From a virus (taxonomy: Duplodnaviria > Heunggongvirae > Uroviricota > Caudoviricetes), in IMG/VR virus record IMGVR_UViG_2778261667_000008, positions 1 through 44,055 of that record: DNA of 44,055 nt, one strand, 5' to 3'. This document shows, piece after piece, positions 22,823 to 31,159 of this stretch. The stretch's first letter is position 1. Each line of letters opens with the position of its first letter. The notes under the pieces are model-generated. The model was given only the letters and a program-made list of their open reading frames with translations, was not told the origin of the DNA and ran no database searches. The translations under genes were made by a program, and so were the position numbers.

Positions 22823-23038
22823 TTACTCTCCTCTCGCAGCCTTTCTTCTGTCTTCTCTGATTTTGAAGTACAGATTTGTCAGATAAGTCAAAAAGCCCAG
22901 AACCAGACTTCCCAGCACACCAATTGCAGCCCACTGTGACGAACTGACCTGATCCAGCCACTGTAAAAACCAGTATCCAGCACTGCCTGCGGAGGTGCCG
23001 TAGGCAATGCCCGTTGTTAACTTGTCCATGGATTTCAT
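22823..23038 (-). CDS. Class II holin (phage 21 S / pinholin type) with dual-start motif
   Basis: 71 aa starting MKSMDK (Met1 and Met4 starts at 23038 and 23029), two TM segments, charged C-terminus; GGAGG SD. Confidence 0.85.
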
Positions 23039-23254
23039 AGCCTCACCTCCGAGAATTCGGATGGTGCTAAACGTAGGGTCCAGGCTCTCAGATTTACTAA
23101 CAAGAAGTCAGAGATGTTATCCGTAGCCTGACAATGAAAAAGCCCTGGTACATGCAAGGGCCTGATGAAGTACCAGATTAAGAATCTGGCGGCATAACCT
23201 CGCACTTGATATCGTTACATCGCCAAAAGTAACAACTATCAATGGAGAAAATGA

Positions 23255-23767
23255 ATGGAACTATTTTTGGTTGATCGCCGAGGAATATACTCAACTGGCG
23301 ATATTGTTACACCAAAGCGATTCTCCGATATAAGTCCTGTCGAAATGTCATCTCTGGTAGACAAACTTTTTCCGTGCGGGCTTGCACCACATGGCGAGGG
23401 ATACCTTATTAACAATGCGGCAAAAAATTATAATAAAAACGAATTCATCGACTGGGGGTTAGAGTTTTACCGAAGAGGAGTTTACCCGCAAAAACCTTCT
23501 CGCTATACGTCACTCTTCGCATGGGGTAACCTGGAGGAGGCTAAACATTTTCGACTTACAGACGGGAAACCATCAGATAAAATCTTCATAATACAAACAG
23601 ATAGTTATCATCGCGGAGATATGTCATTATTAAGAAATGATACATCAGTACTGGAATTCACCTACAGAATGGAACTTTACTGGGCAGGTAAAACCTTTAA
23701 CCCTGATCCAGTCTGGGAATACATTTGTCCGCTACCAGTAACTATCGGTGAACAAGTCCTTGCTTAA
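23255..23767 (+). CDS. Hypothetical 170-aa protein (moron between Q-like gene and lysis cassette)
   Basis: ATG at 23255 with GGAG SD; AT-rich; antisense to the late-operon direction; no family recognised. Confidence 0.55.
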   Translation: MELFLVDRRGIYSTGDIVTPKRFSDISPVEMSSLVDKLFPCGLAPHGEGYLINNAAKNYNKNEFIDWGLEFYRRGVYPQKPSRYTSLFAWGNLEEAKHFRLTDGKPSDKIFIIQTDSYHRGDMSLLRNDTSVLEFTYRMELYWAGKTFNPDPVWEYICPLPVTIGEQVLA

Positions 23768-24021
23768 TCCCCTTCATCCCAATAAAGACCTTTCGCGACA
23801 CAATGGGGGCGGTAAGGATAGCAATAACTTGCTCTGACGTTACCAACCAGCGTACCACTTTCTTTGAATGCCTTATCTCCGTTCCTGAGCTGTGATAAGG
23901 CCTTTTCAAGTTCAGCTATCGCGACAGCCACGTCTTCGCTTTCTACATACAGTGAAAAACCTTTAATGGGTGAACTCATGGTAAGTTGGCTCATAGATAT
24001 TTGATGATGGTGTGAGTGCAT
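23764..24021 (-). CDS. Hypothetical 85-aa protein
   Basis: Track ORF 23764..24066; the best start is the ATG at 24021 (MHSHHHQISM...) preceded by GGGAGA; its stop overlaps the stop of the convergent 170-aa gene. Confidence 0.4.
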   Translation of the reverse strand: MHSHHHQISMSQLTMSSPIKGFSLYVESEDVAVAIAELEKALSQLRNGDKAFKESGTLVGNVRASYCYPYRPHCVAKGLYWDEGD

Positions 24022-24410
24022 AAATAGTCTCCCAGTGAAAGAAAATTCGAGTTGTGCTGTTACCATATCAAGGATGCTACTTATTTCTATATGAAAACAA
24101 TAATAATCATTTAATATGCATAATTATAATTAGCCATCAAGCATTCAAGAAACCATCAAGATATTGATATAAATCACCACAAAACCAATATCGCCTCATA
24201 AAATACCTACGATTCTTTGTCTGTCGGAATCTTTTGTAAATCCTTGTTCTTCTCACCATGAATTTTCACGGGCTCCTCTTCCGGGGAGCTATTTTTTATC
24301 GTAAATAACCACTCATTACAGATGAATTGACCAAAATCAATATCCGTCACAGACATAGAGCAATAGAATTAATAACGTACGCGGTTACTTATATACTTCC
24401 TTTATTCACA

Positions 24411-24438
24411 AGCGACTCTTTAACGGGTCGCTTTTTTT
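24411..24438 (+). terminator. Intrinsic terminator-like hairpin
   Basis: AGCGAC-TCTTTAACGG-GTCGCT followed by TTTTTTT. Confidence 0.5.
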
Positions 24439-24566
24439 CGGACTATCACCGACACAATGTCAAAAAAAAGATCTGCATCACAAAAAAACTTATAAAAAAA
24501 TCACAAAATCCAAAACTCCACTACATAAACACTAATAAATATTGCTTCACATATTTTCATACTAGT

Positions 24567-24588
24567 GCCCTCGCAAGAGGGCTTTTTT
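24567..24588 (+). terminator. Intrinsic terminator-like hairpin
   Basis: GCCCTC-GCAA-GAGGGC followed by TTTTTT. Confidence 0.55.
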
Positions 24589-24728
24589 ATCTGGATGAAA
24601 AACAATCAACCATTAATAATGACATAGTAATATTGACTAAGGTCAAGGAAAAACAAATCATGACACCTAAAGATATAAGAGTTTTTCTGGAGGCGAATTT
24701 TAAAATGCATTAGATTTTACGGCTCTTT

Positions 24729-24755
24729 CACGGGCCGTTTTTTTGCCTGAAATTA
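24729..24755 (+). terminator. Intrinsic terminator-like hairpin
   Basis: ACGGC-TCTTTCACGG-GCCGT followed by TTTTTTT; loop nearly identical to the hairpin at 24411. Confidence 0.5.
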
Positions 24756-24864
24756 TGCCAGAAGCCGTGCTGCATCATCTCACCAACATCAACGTCTCCT
24801 CAGTCCTGAATTAAGACTACGTGGTGATTTTTAGCCTAAAATCCCTGCCAAATACTTTCTATAT

Positions 24865-24890
24865 AAACAAAAAACCGCCCGTCAAGGCGG
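24865..24890 (-). terminator. Intrinsic terminator downstream of the Q-like gene (second of two)
   Basis: Minus-strand CCGCC-TTGACG-GGCGG followed by TTTTTTGTTT. Confidence 0.6.
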
Positions 24891-25155
24891 TAAAAAGATG
24901 GTTAGCTAAAGAGGTCATTATTATTATGATCTGAGGCGTCGGGTGCCTCCCGAAGTATATCAGCTCCTGACTAATACACTGTGGCTTCCCTCCCGCTAAA
25001 CAGTTATACCTTGCCACCCCCGCCCTGGGGAACACCTCAAGATCCTTAACAGATTAAAATACAGCATTAATAATATAAGTGATCTACATCACATTATTTA
25101 GGCATAGAAATATGCATCAAAACAACAACAATATATCAACACTAATATCTCATTT

Positions 25156-25185
25156 CTTACAGATACAAAAAAACCACCTTTAGGT
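25156..25185. terminator. Bidirectional intrinsic terminator just downstream of the Q-like gene (candidate tR')
   Basis: ACCACC-TTTA-GGTGGT flanked by an A-run on one side and a T-run on the other, so it reads as stem plus U-tail on either strand. Confidence 0.6.
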
Positions 25186-25270
25186 GGTTTTTTTGTATCC
25201 GTGGGATTGTTCGCCTCGCGATACAGCTTTGCGAAGCATAGCGAAATTGAAGCAGTTTATACGTAAGAAA

Positions 25271-25933
25271 TCAAGCCATTTTCTCAGCAAATGATTCACG
25301 CATGGGAATATATAGGACATACTCAGCAACAGCTAACCAATTAGCAATCCGTTTTTCGCATGTGCTAAAACACCACTCTGGGTGTGCATCATGTAGCAAT
25401 TCAGCCATTTTACGCTTAGTCATCCCCCGCCCTTCATAGCGTTGCCGGAGAATGCAAATCAATCCTGGATGCTCTGCCAGCACCTCACTTATGACTCGAT
25501 CAATACATAACGCCTCTGCATCAGTACAATGCGCCAGCCAGCTCTTTTGCTTGCCGTTGATCATCTCTCTCAAAAACGCTTCCAGCTCAGCTTTCTCTAT
25601 TCCCGCTTTTTTCATTCTGCGCAGGGCTTCATTGATGGCTGTTTTCGTCAATTTTTGGGATGCCAACAACTGATTGAACATATTTCCTGACCTGCCACCG
25701 CCAATATACGACCAGCGCCCCCACATACGCAGTTTGCCCTGAATCCAGACACTTTCCAGCGTGGCGAGACGAAGGTGTTCTCCGCTTTTTCCTGTATTCG
25801 TTGGGTAAATCACAAATATCCCTCCTTTCTCCAGATTTCTTGTGTGCGAAAAACACCTTCTGCATGCATCAGGCGTAATTCTTCTTTGGTGTAATCGCTG
25901 GTTTTTACCCGCCCGTCGATTAGATCGTGGCAT
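25271..25933 (-). CDS. Putative late-gene antiterminator (Q-like by position)
   Basis: Last gene before two tandem terminators and about 2.2 kb upstream of the lysis cassette; Cys/His-containing. The track start at 25933 overlaps the upstream gene by 124 nt; alternative ATGs at 25726 and 25681 would give a 151- or 137-aa product. Family not recognised by eye. Confidence 0.45.
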   Translation of the reverse strand: MPRSNRRAGKNQRLHQRRITPDACRRCFSHTRNLEKGGIFVIYPTNTGKSGEHLRLATLESVWIQGKLRMWGRWSYIGGGRSGNMFNQLLASQKLTKTAINEALRRMKKAGIEKAELEAFLREMINGKQKSWLAHCTDAEALCIDRVISEVLAEHPGLICILRQRYEGRGMTKRKMAELLHDAHPEWCFSTCEKRIANWLAVAEYVLYIPMRESFAEKMA

Positions 25934-26100
25934 GAGCTACAGGCAATCGCCGCCTGCATATCGTGTGGTTTTGTCGCTATTCCGCACGTTCCCGCCAGTC
26001 GGTAATGCGCCAGCACAGACGTTTCCGGATCGTGATTGCAGTAGCCAGGAATTCTGACGGTGCACATCTGCCCCCGCGCCGCTTTACGTAAATCCACCAT
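25810..26100 (-). CDS. YbcO-like (DUF1364) zinc-binding phage protein
   Basis: 96 aa with CxVRIPGxC...C..C pattern resembling my recollection of DLP12 YbcO; ATG overlaps the upstream stop (TAATG). Confidence 0.55.
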   Translation of the reverse strand: MVDLRKAARGQMCTVRIPGYCNHDPETSVLAHYRLAGTCGIATKPHDMQAAIACSSCHDLIDGRVKTSDYTKEELRLMHAEGVFRTQEIWRKEGYL

Positions 26101-26699
26101 TACGCAAACTCCAGCAGCTGCGCGGCCACATTTTCGACTTGTTCCGGAGAGGAAAATTTACGGAACAGAATCCTGTTCCACAGCACATTCAGAACAGATT
26201 TATAAACCTGCTGAAACTCGGTTTCGTCCATATTCGCAAAAGCGATGGATTTCGCCCGACGCCCATGGCTACCGTCCGGATAAAAATGTTCGGTGTAAAA
26301 TCCAGCCTGAATGGTTACCCACTCGCGAAAAGCCTCAAACGACTTTAGCAATGCCGTATCCCGGGTTCTGCGTGTCGCAACTGTATTCAGATATTGCTCT
26401 GCGGCATCACTCAGGGCTGGCGTGTGTTCCCGACCAACTGATTCGCACAGGTAATCAACGAAACCAGACAGCAGTTCTCGTTCGCGAGGCGTGATCGCCC
26501 CACCGACCGGAGTCCAGTAATCGAATCCCAGTTGCAGGAGTTTGAAAAAACGCTTGTGGAATGCGTAGTTACGCACACGCTTAAAGTCTGCGTGTATCCA
26601 CTCACCTATTTTGATTTGATGCAGAAAATCGCAACTCTCCGGCGTCGCCGGGAGAAGTAAACCAGAAGAAGTTTGTTTGACCAGTTGTATATGCGCCAT
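26100..26699 (-). CDS. Nin-region hypothetical protein (DUF1367-like)
   Basis: 199 aa, ATG at 26699; position between the cargo region and the Q-like gene. Confidence 0.45.
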   Translation of the reverse strand: MAHIQLVKQTSSGLLLPATPESCDFLHQIKIGEWIHADFKRVRNYAFHKRFFKLLQLGFDYWTPVGGAITPRERELLSGFVDYLCESVGREHTPALSDAAEQYLNTVATRRTRDTALLKSFEAFREWVTIQAGFYTEHFYPDGSHGRRAKSIAFANMDETEFQQVYKSVLNVLWNRILFRKFSSPEQVENVAAQLLEFA

Positions 26700-26973
26700 T
26701 TCTCAATCTCTCGATGGCGCAGTGCAGCAGATGCCAGTTGTTCAGGCTGACGTATAAAGTATAAATAAACTGGTTCCAGTGTAAAGCCCCCACATTGATG
26801 GAATAAAAATCAAACAATAGATTGCTGGGATAAAATACAACGCTTATTATTAAAAGCGGTTAGACAAATTAAATTTTAATGTTATGCAAATCTGCCAGAT
26901 CAGCATAATATCTCATTTGAAAACCGCTGAAATAACAATCCTATCAGGATTAATCATATTAAGGTGAGTAAAT

Positions 26974-27060
26974 ATGGAAAACAACAAATCTGCACATTAC
27001 GCTCCTTTTTTATCTGTAATACTTTTTGTTTTTTGCTGTGTATGGGCATTATTTTTATAA
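26974..27060 (+). CDS. Small hydrophobic peptide (28 aa), candidate membrane peptide
   Basis: Below the ORF-track cutoff. AAGGTGAG SD 5 nt before ATG; hand translation MENNKSAHYAPFLSVILFVFCCVWALFL; AT-rich setting. Confidence 0.3.
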   Translation: MENNKSAHYAPFLSVILFVFCCVWALFL

Positions 27061-27168
27061 AAATATTCACAGATAAAATAAACTCGCCGAATCAGGTTAA
27101 GTGTGGGTGCGTTGAGGATGCCTGACACATCAGAGGCGGCGAGGGATTTCTCCCTCGCCTGGTCACTC

Positions 27169-27324
27169 TTACTCCTCAGGTTCGTAAGCTGTGAAGACAG
27201 CGACCTCCGTCTGACCGGTTCGGATTCGCACCTCGCAGAGGTCTTTCCTCGTTACCAGTGCCGTCACTATGACGGTTAAACAGATGACAATCAGTGCGAC
27301 TAACATCGCCTTTTGCTGCTTCAT
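27169..27324 (-). CDS. hokD: Hok/Gef-family type I toxin
   Basis: MKQQKAMLVALIVICLTVIVTALVTRKDLCEVRIRTGQTEVAVFTAYEPEE is near-identical to my recollection of HokD (RelF); AAGGAGAAG SD; the track ORF extends 19 codons upstream in frame; perfect 9-bp stem-loop (27138..27159) in the 3' region. Confidence 0.8.
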   Translation of the reverse strand: MKQQKAMLVALIVICLTVIVTALVTRKDLCEVRIRTGQTEVAVFTAYEPEE

Positions 27325-27955
27325 AGCCTGCTTCTCCTTGCCTTCCGGCGCGTAAGAGGCTAACCTACATGTGCAAAGCATGAAATTGGCCTCAGATTAA
27401 TGTTAAGCGTCTTGCCGGACGCGTAATGTTATCTGGGGCTTTTCTCTATCTGCCGTTGGTGTTCATGCCCGAGGCAGATAGCCTCAAGCACCCGCAGCAA
27501 TTCTACTTAACCCCCGTCACCTCGCCAATATAAAATCAATCAGAAAGGCGATCCATAAGAACAACAGCAAGACAATAAATTGCCATTACAGCCGCAATAG
27601 CTAGCGCACATTTGAGAACCAGCACGACAACCTCCTGTATTGGGCGTACACCAGTCCTGATAAATATGAGGATGTCTCGTCAGTGATTCAATGCAACTAT
27701 TGGGTATAGTTTCTGTGATTTTGTTCTGTAGAAATGGAACACAACAACCAGTCACCATCCGCTCTTCTTTAAATGCGCTAAGTCAGACACAAGCCAACAT
27801 TTTAGTTGGCTTTGAGCGTTCTGGAGATGCGACATTGCTAACAGCCTTTTGAATGAACTAATCGGGGGCTAGTCATAACGGGCATAGCAGTCTCCAAGTA
27901 AGCAAGACTTTGCCATACAGAATGGAGCTAAGTTATTCATCAAATCTCCTTAAAT

Positions 27956-28933
27956 TCATAAAGTTAAATGCGGCCCTAAATACGCCACATATATCCGCTG
28001 ATTTACTGCGTCAGCATAAAAATGTAGGCGGTAACCGTCAGGTAGTTTTACATGATTCTCGCAATAGACCTGCCGTCCATCATCTAACCAAAATATGCGC
28101 TCTTTCTTCTTTTTGGGGGCATTATTTACACTGTCCGATTCACCGCTAACTTCAGCAGCCAAACCCAAATCTCTTAAATATTCATGACGGTACTCTACAT
28201 ACTCACCTGAACGCCATTTCTCACTAAACGATTCCAACACATTTAGCGCATCTCGTGCCTTGAACAAGACATTTTGCCTAGCAGACCAACCTTGTAGACT
28301 TGTACCTATTTGATTTGACAACAAAGTGAGATGAGGAAACAAATCTGCTCTTTTCAGCCAGATATCCTTAGCAGTACTTAACAACGTATTACGATGTTGT
28401 TTGAGTTCATCTCCATGCACATCCAAGCTCGCAGAATTACTCAGATTTAAAATCGTTTCATCCCTTTGTTCTGGTATTGCATCAAGCTCGAAAACCCATA
28501 CTTTAAAATGGCTATTTGTCCAAGTAGCTAAAGCCGTAAAACTAGCAAGAAAAGTTTTAAAATAAAACGCTGCTAATAGCACCGCTTTACCTGTATCTTC
28601 CCCTGGCAAGCCAACTTCTAATACATCACCTAAAGTTTCAATATCCACGGTTTCAAAGAGAGGCTGTTTCGTTTCAAGAGACTTTAGAAATCGACACCAA
28701 TCCGCAAGTTCTGCAACTTTGCTCGCAGAGGCAAGCCAATTGCGCACAAAATATCCGTTAGCCAGCTCCAATCCCATTAGCGACTTGTCTTGATCTTCAT
28801 CGATGAGCAAAATTTTCAGCCCAGCAGTTCGGCAGACCTTAAGAACAGTAAAGAAAGCCAATAGTCCTTCATCTGCATCCTCTTTGCTAGCAAATGGCAA
28901 AGAATGATGGTTCAACACAATTCCATTACTCAT
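27956..28933 (-). CDS. Hypothetical 325-aa protein, third gene of the DUF262/ATPase operon
   Basis: ATG overlaps the stop of the upstream ATPase gene (ATGA); AT-rich; no domain recognised by eye. Confidence 0.7.
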   Translation of the reverse strand: MSNGIVLNHHSLPFASKEDADEGLLAFFTVLKVCRTAGLKILLIDEDQDKSLMGLELANGYFVRNWLASASKVAELADWCRFLKSLETKQPLFETVDIETLGDVLEVGLPGEDTGKAVLLAAFYFKTFLASFTALATWTNSHFKVWVFELDAIPEQRDETILNLSNSASLDVHGDELKQHRNTLLSTAKDIWLKRADLFPHLTLLSNQIGTSLQGWSARQNVLFKARDALNVLESFSEKWRSGEYVEYRHEYLRDLGLAAEVSGESDSVNNAPKKKKERIFWLDDGRQVYCENHVKLPDGYRLHFYADAVNQRIYVAYLGPHLTL

Positions 28934-30039
28934 AACAGATGATCCAACTCCTTATCCCATTGGTCAAAGAAGCCTTCCGGCCAACAGTCTATTCGTCCCT
29001 CATCATCAATATTGGGGTACATGACTTCTGAGGCGTGAATGGAGTTATGAACATCTCGCTGTAAGAAAAAGACTTTGACATCGTCAGCTGCAACCACTTT
29101 CTGCTTCACCGCAACCCGTATACCGTTGAGAAAATGATCAGAATGAGATTCAACGATTAATTGCACGCCATTATTCGCAGCAATGGAGCACAATTTACCC
29201 ATCAAGGATTGCCCAGCGGGATGCAAGTGTGATTCTGGGTTTTCAATAATCAGCAAATCACCTTTTGCCGCACTTAGTATACTGGTTACGACAGGTAACA
29301 CATAACTTAATCCAAACCCCACATTCTGTGGTTTAAAGTCTTCGGTGGTGTCTTTCCCTTGGTTAAAAGAGTAACTAAGACTCACCGAATTAAACTGAGG
29401 CTGCGCTACTGCTTTAATTTTTAACCCTGGCGTAATATCCGACATCCATGCTTCAATATTAGAAAGCAAAGTCCCTGAAACAGCCTTTTGATGGCGTAAC
29501 GCTTCTATTTCCAGGTCTTTAGCGCCATTAACCGCGATAAAATGAACTGCAAATTCGCCATGATGACCAAGTGATTTTAAATCACGGATATGAAACTCAG
29601 ACAACTGGTGATGGCTTTGTGGGCCTAACCTATCGGCACATAAATACTGAAAATTAGAGTTAAATAAGCTTAATAATTCTGAATCACCGTCAATACCAGA
29701 TTTACGCAGCGGCAGCAGATCTGAGTCATGTTGATAATCAAACTCAAACCGTGTTGGCTGTTCTTTCTCGAGCCATTTAATGGTAAAAATAATCTCTTCT
29801 TGTTCACTAAAACTAGAGAGCGCGTCTTTACCCGTACCGATATTGACATAATCACCATTTAACAGCAAACCCTTAGTTTTAAGGGTATTGCGTTCATAAG
29901 ACTGCCTTAAAAGCAATAAACTTTGCACAAGCGTTGATTTTCCCATGCCATTAAGGCCTGAGAACAGATTCAGATTACCCAGTGGAAAACTGGCATTTAA
30001 CAAGGTTTTAAAGTTTTGAATATTAATAAACTCAATCAT
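28930..30039 (-). CDS. AAA_21/ABC-type ATPase (OLD/AriA/PtuA-like ATPase architecture, no nuclease domain evident)
   Basis: Walker A GLNGMGKST near the N-terminus; LLIIENPESHLHP (DEPExxLHP-type Walker B/D-loop signature); C-terminal ...CWPEGFFDQW; start overlaps the upstream gene's stop by 8 nt. Confidence 0.8.
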   Translation of the reverse strand: MIEFINIQNFKTLLNASFPLGNLNLFSGLNGMGKSTLVQSLLLLRQSYERNTLKTKGLLLNGDYVNIGTGKDALSSFSEQEEIIFTIKWLEKEQPTRFEFDYQHDSDLLPLRKSGIDGDSELLSLFNSNFQYLCADRLGPQSHHQLSEFHIRDLKSLGHHGEFAVHFIAVNGAKDLEIEALRHQKAVSGTLLSNIEAWMSDITPGLKIKAVAQPQFNSVSLSYSFNQGKDTTEDFKPQNVGFGLSYVLPVVTSILSAAKGDLLIIENPESHLHPAGQSLMGKLCSIAANNGVQLIVESHSDHFLNGIRVAVKQKVVAADDVKVFFLQRDVHNSIHASEVMYPNIDDEGRIDCWPEGFFDQWDKELDHLL

Positions 30040-31159
30040 TAAGCATCTCTTTAATCAAAGCATTGACTTTTTCATACCGTATTTCCACATGCTCTTTTCG
30101 CTGAGTGGAGTAGCTAATAACATTAATAAATTCAGCATCTTCCAATAACGTCTGCACCTTTTTTTGAAACTTTTTTTGATTATAAACCAAGCGGTTAAAC
30201 TCGTTTTCAGTTAATTTCACCAACATAACCATCCAGACTTCAAATAGTGTTGCATTTTTTGACCGTCTTCTTGATGCAGGGTTTTTTTCAAAACCCTTTT
30301 CTCCTAACAGTTGGTAACAGCGCTCTATTGCAGTTGAATACTTAGCTTTAAACTCTGCACGGTAGGCATCATCACCTTTTTTGATATCTTCCATGGCTTT
30401 ATCTAAAAACGAAGAAATTTCTTTTTTGTTTTTAGGGTCTAAATAATCAAAGCGATAGAACGCCCAGAATCGCAATACCAGTTCCTGATCCTTCATACGT
30501 TTGGAAAGGTCACCTAGCATGGCTTTCGAGCATGCTGAATTGGCTAACTCTTCGAGCAATTCTCTGTCTCTTGGCTTAGCGAGCGCATTACGGATCTCTT
30601 GATTATTTAGAGTTAAGCCACCTGTATTGATCCGGCGAAACACCGAATACTTAACGTCCTCAGGCGTACCCGGCTTAATCATGTACACAGTAACAGGACA
30701 TTCTTCAATACGGCGTTGATATTGACGATGTAATTTATCGAAGGTTTTACCATTAAGGTCTGTTAAGAACTCCAGTCCATTGAGACGAAGCTTTTTATCT
30801 AACACAAACTTGCGAATCGTAGATAACCGCTGCAAGCCATCCACAATTAGCCAATTATTTTCATCGGACGCATCGAAGTAGAAAGCAGGTAATGGGAACC
30901 GAATCAAAATTGATTCGATTAATCGGCTCATCTTGCGGTTATCCCATAACTCCGCATGGCGCTGAAAATCGGTATTCATGTCGATCTCATTGTGCTGAAT
31001 TCGCTTAATCAAGGCATCCAACGACTTCGGTTCAACGACGATATCAATATCAGTCGGGTTGAACGGGTGCATCACCTCATCAAGCAGTTCCGGCTCTTCC
31101 TCTTCCGCACCTGGCGCAACCAACTCTTCATCAAGCTCGGTTTCTTGATAATCAACCAT
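30032..31159 (-). CDS. DUF262-like (ParB/Srx-fold, GmrSD N-domain-like) protein
   Basis: 375 aa; FQR...W...IVDGLQRLSTI matches the DGQQR signature region of DUF262; acidic N-terminal tail; ATG at 31159 with AAGGGGAAG SD. Confidence 0.7.
   Translation of the reverse strand: MVDYQETELDEELVAPGAEEEEPELLDEVMHPFNPTDIDIVVEPKSLDALIKRIQHNEIDMNTDFQRHAELWDNRKMSRLIESILIRFPLPAFYFDASDENNWLIVDGLQRLSTIRKFVLDKKLRLNGLEFLTDLNGKTFDKLHRQYQRRIEECPVTVYMIKPGTPEDVKYSVFRRINTGGLTLNNQEIRNALAKPRDRELLEELANSACSKAMLGDLSKRMKDQELVLRFWAFYRFDYLDPKNKKEISSFLDKAMEDIKKGDDAYRAEFKAKYSTAIERCYQLLGEKGFEKNPASRRRSKNATLFEVWMVMLVKLTENEFNRLVYNQKKFQKKVQTLLEDAEFINVISYSTQRKEHVEIRYEKVNALIKEMLND

Follow-up and report, generated by a model that had tools for sequence, protein, structure and literature searches.

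Where does late transcription begin in an intact Rac-type prophage, and which terminator would its antiterminator have to override? The question arises from two minus-strand hairpins that follow the Q-like gene of the window analysed here, a 44,055-nt stretch of DNA. A first-pass annotation had read both hairpins as tandem terminators controlled by the late antiterminator and had placed a possible short constitutive leader RNA between them. The window is an intact lambdoid prophage of the Rac type. In a near-identical E. coli genome, the prophage adjoins ttcA and carries intR, xisR, ralR, recET, kilR, sieB, ydaT and ydaV, and the lysis, terminase, head and tail region that comes next is complete; the Rac prophage of E. 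coli K-12 has lost its late-control part. The late genes of the window lie on the minus strand, and around the Q-like gene the order is hok/sok (sok identified by an Rfam match of 111 bits), a DUF1367 gene, a YbcO/DUF1364 gene and finally the Q-like DUF1133 gene itself at 25813-25271. The roughly 2.2 kb on its 3′ side hold a single annotated gene, on the opposite strand, before the S21-type holin gene (23038-22823, minus strand) and the adjacent lysis genes are reached. No tRNA genes such as those found 3′ of the Q gene in Stx phages were detected in the window. Four plus-strand terminators also lie near the Q-like gene; a search for tandem repeat units among them found none, and they have no Rfam match. 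Taking the evidence described below together, we regard the region as the probable cassette for late-gene control in this prophage, with an unrelated small-RNA module behind it.

The 180-residue product of the Q-like gene (stop codon 25273-25271, minus strand) belongs to the DUF1133/AntQ type. Pfam DUF1133 (PF06576) matches it with 352 bits (E = 4.6e-106, cut-off 23.1) over model positions 1-175 of 176, and PHROG 753, 'anti-termination protein Q-like', with 9e-78. The score against PF06530, Phage_antitermQ, the model for Q proteins of the phage 21 type, lies just above its cut-off (26.4 bits, cut-off 26). When 31 relatives with identities of 47-98% were combined into a profile and this was compared with the Q21 structures (PDB 6p18/6jnx), the match reached E = 1.1e-7 and comprised two colinear stretches, Q21 residues 8-31 and 56-154, one of them being the N-terminal W..G.L..WG.W.Y motif. 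The AlphaFold model of the protein is poor, with a shallow alignment and a mean pLDDT of 61.5; the Foldseek ranking of PDB entries obtained with it places four Q21 chains on top (E 0.008-0.026, TM 0.43-0.58), followed by a fifth entry at E = 1.8. Because of the Pfam and PHROG matches, the Q21 profile match and the fact that Q21 chains are the only credible structural neighbours, the name 'Q-like' given in the first-pass annotation is justified, and the protein represents a remote branch within the Q21 family. A literature search on DUF1133 and on the sequence of the transcribed block described below found no papers.

For the DNA that follows the gene, we collected 113 loci that encode relatives of the protein, taken from species genomes and viral contigs, and compared the surroundings of their stop codons, which comprise 66 distinct sequences. 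A skeleton of the form TTGNNN-17-T[TA]NA[AC]T-5-TAN[GC]CT recurs with invariant spacing in 58 of these 66 distinct downstream regions. Its carriers are Escherichia, Salmonella, Citrobacter, Enterobacter, Klebsiella and others, at protein identities of 54-100%. Among these relatives, the position of the skeleton relative to the stop codon varies between -27 and +16, and because this offset shifts by 43 nt, the skeleton must be conserved at the DNA level and not by coding.

In the window, the -35-like hexamer TTGATT (25274-25269, minus strand) includes the TGA stop of the Q-like gene. It is separated by the 17-nt spacer TCTTACGTATAAACTGC (25268-25252, minus strand) from the -10-like hexamer TTCAAT (25251-25246, minus strand), which conforms to the fixed-spacing pattern T[TA]NA[AC]T of the relatives. 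Five nucleotides further on lies TATGCT (25240-25235, minus strand), a candidate sigma-dependent pause element, which appears in DUF1133 relatives as TATGCT, TACGCT, TAAGCT or TAGGCT. The -10-like hexamer is weak: it has T for A at -11, a position where A is usually essential in -10 elements, and a generic promoter scan did not report the TTGATT/TTCAAT site. In alignments, TTCAAT corresponds to the TATATT of isrK-type relatives and to the annotated weak -10 of phage 21, AACACT. The possibility that TAnGCT is the true -10 was ruled out, as type A relatives have no fitting -35 or TG extension for it. The skeleton pattern, which was drawn partly from the window's own subtype, occurs once in the 44 kb, at the Q-like stop codon, with 0.02 occurrences expected by chance; a pattern derived solely from the more distant type B relatives reaches the same site with two mismatches, and with two such sites in the window versus 0.54 expected it gives weak independent support. 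The comparison points to a candidate sigma-70 late promoter, PR′, overlapping the stop codon of the Q-like gene, with transcription predicted to start at 25239-25241. The promoter-like element (25274-25246) and the pause hexamer fall within 25190..25280, the interval in which a late promoter had been anticipated from the sequence of the window.

This arrangement can be compared with that of phage 21, for which the annotated genome OL657228, whose parts are marked with citations of structural papers, served as reference. There, the -35 TTGACA lies 6 nt past the Q stop and is accompanied by the weak -10 AACACT, with the start site 7 nt later. The Q-binding element (QBE; ATTGAGCA AATGAGCA) sits inside the 17-nt spacer, the pause element (SDPE) TAAGCT(G) starts 1 nt after the transcription start and the terminator ends about 50 nt from the start. 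Everything from the -35 through the terminator is contained within at most 90 nt of the Q stop, and tRNA genes and the S21 holin gene come after the terminator. That the Q21 binding element lies between -35 and -10, and that the initial transcribed region holds a -10-like pause element, has been described (PMC6606751; bioRxiv 10.1101/651190). The window and phage 21 have in common the succession of Q stop, -35, 17-nt spacer, weak -10, start, TAnGCT at about +1..+7 and a terminator within 50-75 nt, as well as a detectably homologous Q protein and a class II (S21-type) holin downstream.

The two systems nevertheless differ in several respects. In a structural alignment the window protein shares only about 15% identity with Q21, and it belongs to a separate Pfam family, DUF1133. 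The gap from the -10 to the pause element is 5 nt in the window and 7 nt in phage 21, phage 21 has nothing that corresponds to the 25-nt block conserved between pause hexamer and terminator, and the leader is predicted at about 73 nt as against about 50 nt. Moreover, the window spacer lacks the TGAGCA direct repeat of the QBE, of which some more distant relatives have a single TGAGCA or TGAGCC in their spacer. Q binding specificity is therefore expected to differ, and the spacer is not a site of the phage 21 immunity type. We infer from its position, equivalent to that of the spacer filled by the phage 21 QBE, that the segment 25268-25252 is the candidate QBE of the window. It is kept among close relatives despite being non-coding and is swapped as a block in other subtypes.

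The first of the two hairpins, T1 (25200-25161, minus strand), reads GGATACAAAAAAACCACC-TAAA-GGTGGTTTTTTTGTATCT and forms a perfect 18-bp stem with arms at 25200-25183 and 25178-25161. Its core consists of ACCACC (25188-25183), the loop (25182-25179) and GGTGGT (25178-25173), flanked by A7 and T7, and the U run extends to 25167. The first-pass annotation had recognized the ACCACC/GGTGGT core and its distance from the gene (83-104 nt past the stop codon) correctly, whereas the coordinates it gave, 25156..25185, were off by about 10-15 nt. With a folding energy of -25.3 kcal/mol (z = -8.45), T1 was equalled by none of 200 shuffles. As an A run precedes the stem and a T run trails it, T1 is terminator-like on both strands. 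A consensus scan of 23500-26500 reported six terminator-like sites (2.4 +/- 1.6 in shuffles) and missed T1, because its stem runs into the A and T tracts. At the equivalent position, 46-93 nt past the stop codon, 62 of the 66 relatives have a hairpin with a T run; these stems represent at least six unrelated sequences, the position being kept and the sequence not. Since the skeleton followed by a terminator recurs in the relatives and the phage 21 layout matches, T1 is most likely tR′, as judged by sequence comparison.

Further information on this layout comes from relatives with a different downstream region. At 81-86% identity, loci from Salmonella and Shigella/E. coli carry TTGACT-18-TATATT over the stop codon, in the same register as in the window, and an Rfam isrK match starts 33 nt past the stop codon, exactly 7 nt past TATATT. 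Two relatives, L006 and L008, score 67-76 bits for isrK at the equivalent place. In Gifsy-1, antQ, which encodes a Q-like antiterminator, is immediately followed by isrK; the IsrK transcript stops at an intrinsic terminator of its own, though some read-through occurs, and AntQ hampers this termination (PMC4825925). IsrK has been described as arising from a phage promoter that is regulated by antitermination, and short late-promoter RNAs are given for lambda, 21, phi80, 82 and P22 (PMC7547250). It is in the Gifsy-1 work on AntQ and IsrK that the layout proposed here comes closest, by analogy, to being supported by experiment. The window resembles Gifsy-1 in the protein family, with an 81%-identical Salmonella relative followed by an isrK match, in the candidate promoter over the stop codon and in the predicted short RNA that runs to an intrinsic terminator with read-through into the next genes. 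It differs in that isrK, C4 and anrP sequences are absent; Rfam RF01394 (isrK) gave no match in 23000-27500 of the window even at E <= 1. Furthermore, its -10 is weak in comparison with TATATT, and the TAnGCT hexamer at the transcript start is absent from the isrK type.

These relatives bear on another explanation, according to which the 62 nt behind the gene and T1 would be a mere 3′ untranslated region and terminator, contributing to stability or insulation; there would be no promoter, and the late genes would be driven from elsewhere or the cassette would be defunct. Such a region would account for the non-canonical -10-like hexamer; terminators are common after the last gene of an operon, and a bidirectional T1 together with four nearby plus-strand terminators points to convergent transcription. 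However, invariant spacings of 17 nt and 5 nt are the signature of a promoter and not of a 3′ untranslated region, the more so as the skeleton shifts by 43 nt relative to the coding sequence. In addition, phage 21, in which the order of the parts is identical, has TAAGCT annotated as its pause element, and in the Salmonella-type relatives a canonical promoter stands in register and the isrK match begins there (PMC4825925). We therefore consider the absence of a promoter improbable and retain PR′ over the stop codon, followed by T1 as tR′, as the preferred interpretation.

From the predicted start to the U run of T1, the late-leader RNA would measure about 73 nt (25240-25167, minus strand). Its computed fold (-30.5 kcal/mol, z = -6.0) comes mostly from T1. 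Two candidate assignments were discarded: an Rfam STnc50/STnc40 match over T1 (27.7 bits) is due chiefly to the terminator, STnc40 being described as the mutT attenuator (PMC5391140), and the abundant EDL933 ncRNAs ncR1085800 and ncR1481381, considered as leader RNAs, adjoin STAXI elements and not Q genes. A further candidate for the identity of the leader is HnrS, a prophage sRNA of 66 nt (PMC13502914). The predicted leader would be analogous to IsrK, lambda 6S RNA and StxS (PMC4825925, PMC7547250). With the lambda and StxS systems the window would share a constitutive late promoter after Q that gives a short RNA in lysogens and is read through once Q is made (PMC7547250). In contrast, the Q families are unrelated, lambda Q belonging to PF03589 and the Q21-family model being PF06530, and lambda 6S RNA (194 nt) and StxS (258 nt) are longer than the roughly 73 nt predicted here. 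StxS is processed and binds Hfq, the 258 nt being the length of its unprocessed transcript (PMC7547250).

Directly behind the pause hexamer, the initial transcribed block TCGCAAAGCTGTATCGCGAGGCGAA (25234-25210, minus strand) is at least 90% conserved among 22 non-redundant type A relatives. Its first 15 nt or so persist even with another spacer type, and the first 20-30 transcribed nucleotides (TAnGCT TCGCAAAGCTGTATC...) are kept across genera and spacer (Q-binding) types. RNAalifold detected only a 4-bp invariant stem in the block (-0.95 kcal/mol) and no covariation. A role in pausing or in Q loading is our guess. When positions 25300-24700 were compared with complete E. coli genomes by megablast, the gene end plus about 62 nt, up to about 25209, was present in 1,518 of 5,426, while the full 601 nt was found in only six. 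The promoter module accordingly occurs in about 28% of these genomes, and the module between T1 and T2, the second hairpin, in 6-7 of the 5,426. The stop of homology at about 25209 fits a Q gene and its loading site travelling as one module, with the later DNA being exchangeable. One could go further and regard DUF1133/AntQ cassettes as a distinct, widespread Q subclass, in which the block TAnGCT TCGCAAAGCTGTATC... would be either a new pausing or loading signal or the 5′ seed of a trans-acting leader of about 70 nt; we hold this extension to be rather unlikely. If it were true, a trans-acting leader would resemble IsrK, StxS and HnrS.

What, then, is the second hairpin? The first-pass annotation had reported a further minus-strand terminator about 380 nt past the stop codon, and this is borne out by T2 (24891-24868, minus strand), which consists of ACCGCCT-TGAC-GGGCGGT (24891-24874) and TTTTTT (24873-24868), lies 380 nt past the Q-like stop and is a hit of the consensus scan. 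Its fold (-11.2 kcal/mol, z = -2.7) was equalled by 3 of 200 shuffles and is marginal by energy alone; its ACCGCC arm is kept in three related elements of other prophages (L118-L120). T2 closes a divergent STnc100-like structured RNA element at 25065-24865 (minus strand; core approximately 24925-25045), located between the Q-like gene and the holin gene on the late-gene strand. Rfam RF02076 matches the element over its full length with 25.7 bits, below the gathering score of 47, at E values from 0.0008 (351-nt search) to 0.01. With bona fide STnc100, the element shares an identical 13-nt CGGGAGGCACCCG hairpin and a C-rich CCCC..GGGG hairpin. In each of the eight sequences compared, 6-7 pairs of a 7-bp closing helix can form, with both-sided, compensatory changes at four positions, and across the same eight sequences the pair closing the CGGGAGGCACCCG hairpin changes from C-G to U-A. 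BLAST further revealed a clade of elements about 70% identical to it, found on plasmids and, in other prophages, between the Q and holin genes; two of them reach 35.5-36 bits for STnc100.

STnc100 is a multicopy, expressed prophage RNA with 11 copies in EDL933, one of which was confirmed by Northern blot (PMC5331693); one copy lies 75 nt after the stx2 operon, in the late region (PMC12370729), and STnc100 has been reported to be structurally related to the PasD sRNAs (bioRxiv 10.64898/2026.05.13.724894). Like STnc100 and PasD, the window element is positioned between Q and the lysis genes of a lambdoid prophage on the late strand, and it has in common with STnc100 the closing helix as well as the C-rich and CGGGAGGCACCCG hairpins. 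It deviates from STnc100 in the 5′ arm, which in its clade is UGAGGUG and not CAUGGUG, in its central region and in having its own strong terminator, T2. Bona fide STnc100 copies are also found 3′ of members of the same gene family (L002, L019, L039, L049 and L084). In the Klebsiella relative L019, about 80 nt separate the T1 equivalent from the start of a bona fide STnc100 (79 bits), an arrangement as in the window, and other copies are found 750-2300 nt past the Q-like gene. On account of the Rfam match, the shared hairpins, the ACCGCC clade and the arrangement in L019, we assign T2 to the STnc100-like element: by its sequence relationships it is the putative terminator of this RNA and lies outside the Q-specific cassette. 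Hence, of the proposal that Q overrides tandem terminators, the part concerning T1 is supported, as T1 occupies the tR′ position both by comparison with phage 21 and in 62 of 66 relatives, whereas the reading of T2 as a duplicate of tR′ is not. Nor is the placing of the late leader in the interval between the hairpins supported: this interval is taken up by the STnc100-like element, which is unlinked to the gene, and the predicted leader lies upstream of T1.

One may ask whether there is an RNA gene in front of T2 at all. The likeness to STnc100 could be due to chance or be a decayed remnant, with T2 as an isolated terminator or a chance hairpin. In line with this, the Rfam match, at 25.7 bits, falls far short of the gathering score, the whole element folds no better than shuffled sequences do (z = -1.6 to -1.9) and T2 alone reaches z = -2.7. 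The promoter equivalent is weak as well: the promoter before true STnc100, TTGAAA/TTGACT-17-TAAATT/TAAAGT, is degenerate in the window, reading TTAATG-17-AAGGAT. Yet the STnc100 match spans the full model, the 13-nt CGGGAGGCACCCG hairpin is identical and the closing helix is kept through compensatory changes at four positions in eight sequences. The clade of about 70% identity, with its scores of 35.5-36 bits and its ACCGCC arm, moreover occurs between Q and holin genes elsewhere. We thus regard a chance or decayed likeness as unlikely and continue to treat the segment as a divergent STnc100-like element.

The AT-rich spacer behind T1 also contains the best sigma-70 match of the minus strand near the gene, TTGATG-16-AATAAT (25120-25093, minus strand; 9/12 matches), a possible promoter of the downstream RNA. 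A CRP-like site at 25078-25093 was rejected, being at chance level (one found, 1.58 expected) and absent from relatives. If the sigma-70 match were the late promoter, T1 would end the early operon, T2 would be the true tR′ and the STnc100-like RNA of about 215 nt would be the constitutive leader and counterpart of 6S RNA. The length of such a transcript is like that of lambda 6S RNA and of the 258-nt unprocessed StxS (PMC7547250), and T1, being bidirectional, could serve as an operon boundary. But TTGATG-16-AATAAT is not conserved in relatives, and promoter-like matches in the region are at chance, with six found versus 6.0 expected. The segment 25160-24865 is unlinked to the Q-like gene, as the 98%-identical gene L049 has unrelated DNA past the terminator, and the module is rare (6-7 of 5,426 genomes), yet a Q protein cannot do without the loading site cognate to it. 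It is in front of T1 that the conserved skeleton of promoter and pause elements, like that of phage 21, is situated, and canonical STnc100 is found far from Q, either 75 nt past the stx2 operon (PMC12370729) or 750-2300 nt past the Q-like gene. There is accordingly little to recommend a late promoter behind T1, and we maintain the assignment of PR′ to the stop codon of the Q-like gene and of tR′ to T1.

On the basis of these comparisons, we propose the following model. The Q-like gene (25813-25271) would encode an antiterminator of the DUF1133/AntQ type, distantly akin to phage 21 Q. PR′, lying over its stop codon, would comprise the -35 TTGATT, a 17-nt spacer with the Q-binding site and the weak -10 TTCAAT. 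Transcription would start near 25240, and TATGCT at +1..+6 would hold sigma-70 and cause an early pause of the polymerase. Without Q, termination at T1 (tR′) would release the leader RNA of about 73 nt. Once loaded at the pause, Q would render the polymerase resistant to terminators, allowing it to pass T1, T2 and about 1.8 kb of cargo and to reach the holin and lysis genes from 23038 onwards. Since T1 and T2 both stand between the late promoter and the holin gene at 23038, the Q-modified polymerase would have to pass both, although only T1 would belong to the Q cassette. The T1-T2 interval would constitute a separate, rare cargo module with an STnc100-like RNA ending at T2.

The region is thus most likely an ordinary, previously undescribed example of the textbook Q/PR′/tR′ arrangement, of the phage 21 kind, from the little-studied DUF1133/AntQ branch. 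It shows where, in an intact prophage of the Rac type, the lysis-lysogeny output switch would lie. The position of the predicted leader is corrected, and the leader is set apart from the STnc100-like cargo RNA. The label 'DUF1133 family protein' gains a concrete predicted role, that of an antiterminator related to Q21 whose promoter, pause site and terminator can be recognised. A short constitutive leader RNA is predicted for about 1,500 of the 5,426 complete E. coli genomes, and leader RNAs of a similar kind have proved to be regulators in other prophages.

Immediately after the pause hexamer TATGCT (25240-25235), a candidate sigma-dependent pause element, a 25-nt block on the minus strand (25210-25234) is conserved across genera, but phage 21 is without a counterpart of it. 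No covariation supporting an RNA fold was found in these 25 nt. In type B relatives, the more distant ones (L010, L013, L014, L021, L024 and L026-L030), the spacer between the -35 and -10 elements carries TGAGCA or TGAGCC, a half-site of the Q-binding element of phage 21, and the same motif recurs where their conserved transcribed block ends (…GAACTGAGCA). The loci L032 and L017 join a type B spacer to a transcribed block of the window's own type, so spacer and block are exchangeable. In Salmonella/Shigella-type relatives, the DUF1133 gene, which encodes the Q-like antiterminator, is followed by isrK and a C4-type antisense RNA (isrK/C4 at 308-494 and 3606-3786 of L008 and at 3593-3794 of L006); L008 has an extra isrK/C4 pair 2.6 kb upstream of its DUF1133 gene.

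Between T1, the intrinsic terminator proposed as tR', and the STnc100-like element, a divergent structured RNA candidate, lies a near-consensus CRP-type palindrome with one mismatch (TGTGATGTAGATCACT, 25078-25093). Across the window, one CRP-type site was found versus 1.58 expected, which is chance level, and the palindrome is absent upstream of elements related to the STnc100-like RNA. Downstream of the plus-strand gene 23255-23767, four terminator-like plus-strand hairpins (24271-90, 24410-33, 24567-82 and 24719-38) are packed into approximately 470 nt of AT-rich, unannotated DNA; neither repeats around them nor an Rfam match was found for this interval (24271-24738). The 1.4-kb module 23770-25160 is confined to 6-7 of 5426 E. 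coli genomes.

Directly upstream of the DUF1367, YbcO and Q-like genes, the minus strand carries a hok/sok region (27169-27493) with a hok-type toxin ORF (27169-27381) and a full-length match to sok antisense RNA (Rfam RF01794, 111 bits); hok/sok occupies the equivalent place in most related loci. The KK19-02 prophage, near-identical elsewhere, has a P-loop NTPase gene in place of three neighbouring minus-strand ORFs of the nin region (27956-31159). These ORFs match NsnC (PADLOC 1.1e-89), NsnB (PADLOC 8.9e-122; Pfam AAA_15 and DUF3696) and NsnA (PADLOC 3.5e-123; Pfam GmrSD_N), and as a set they appear to make up a complete NsnABC system, a candidate for anti-phage defence.
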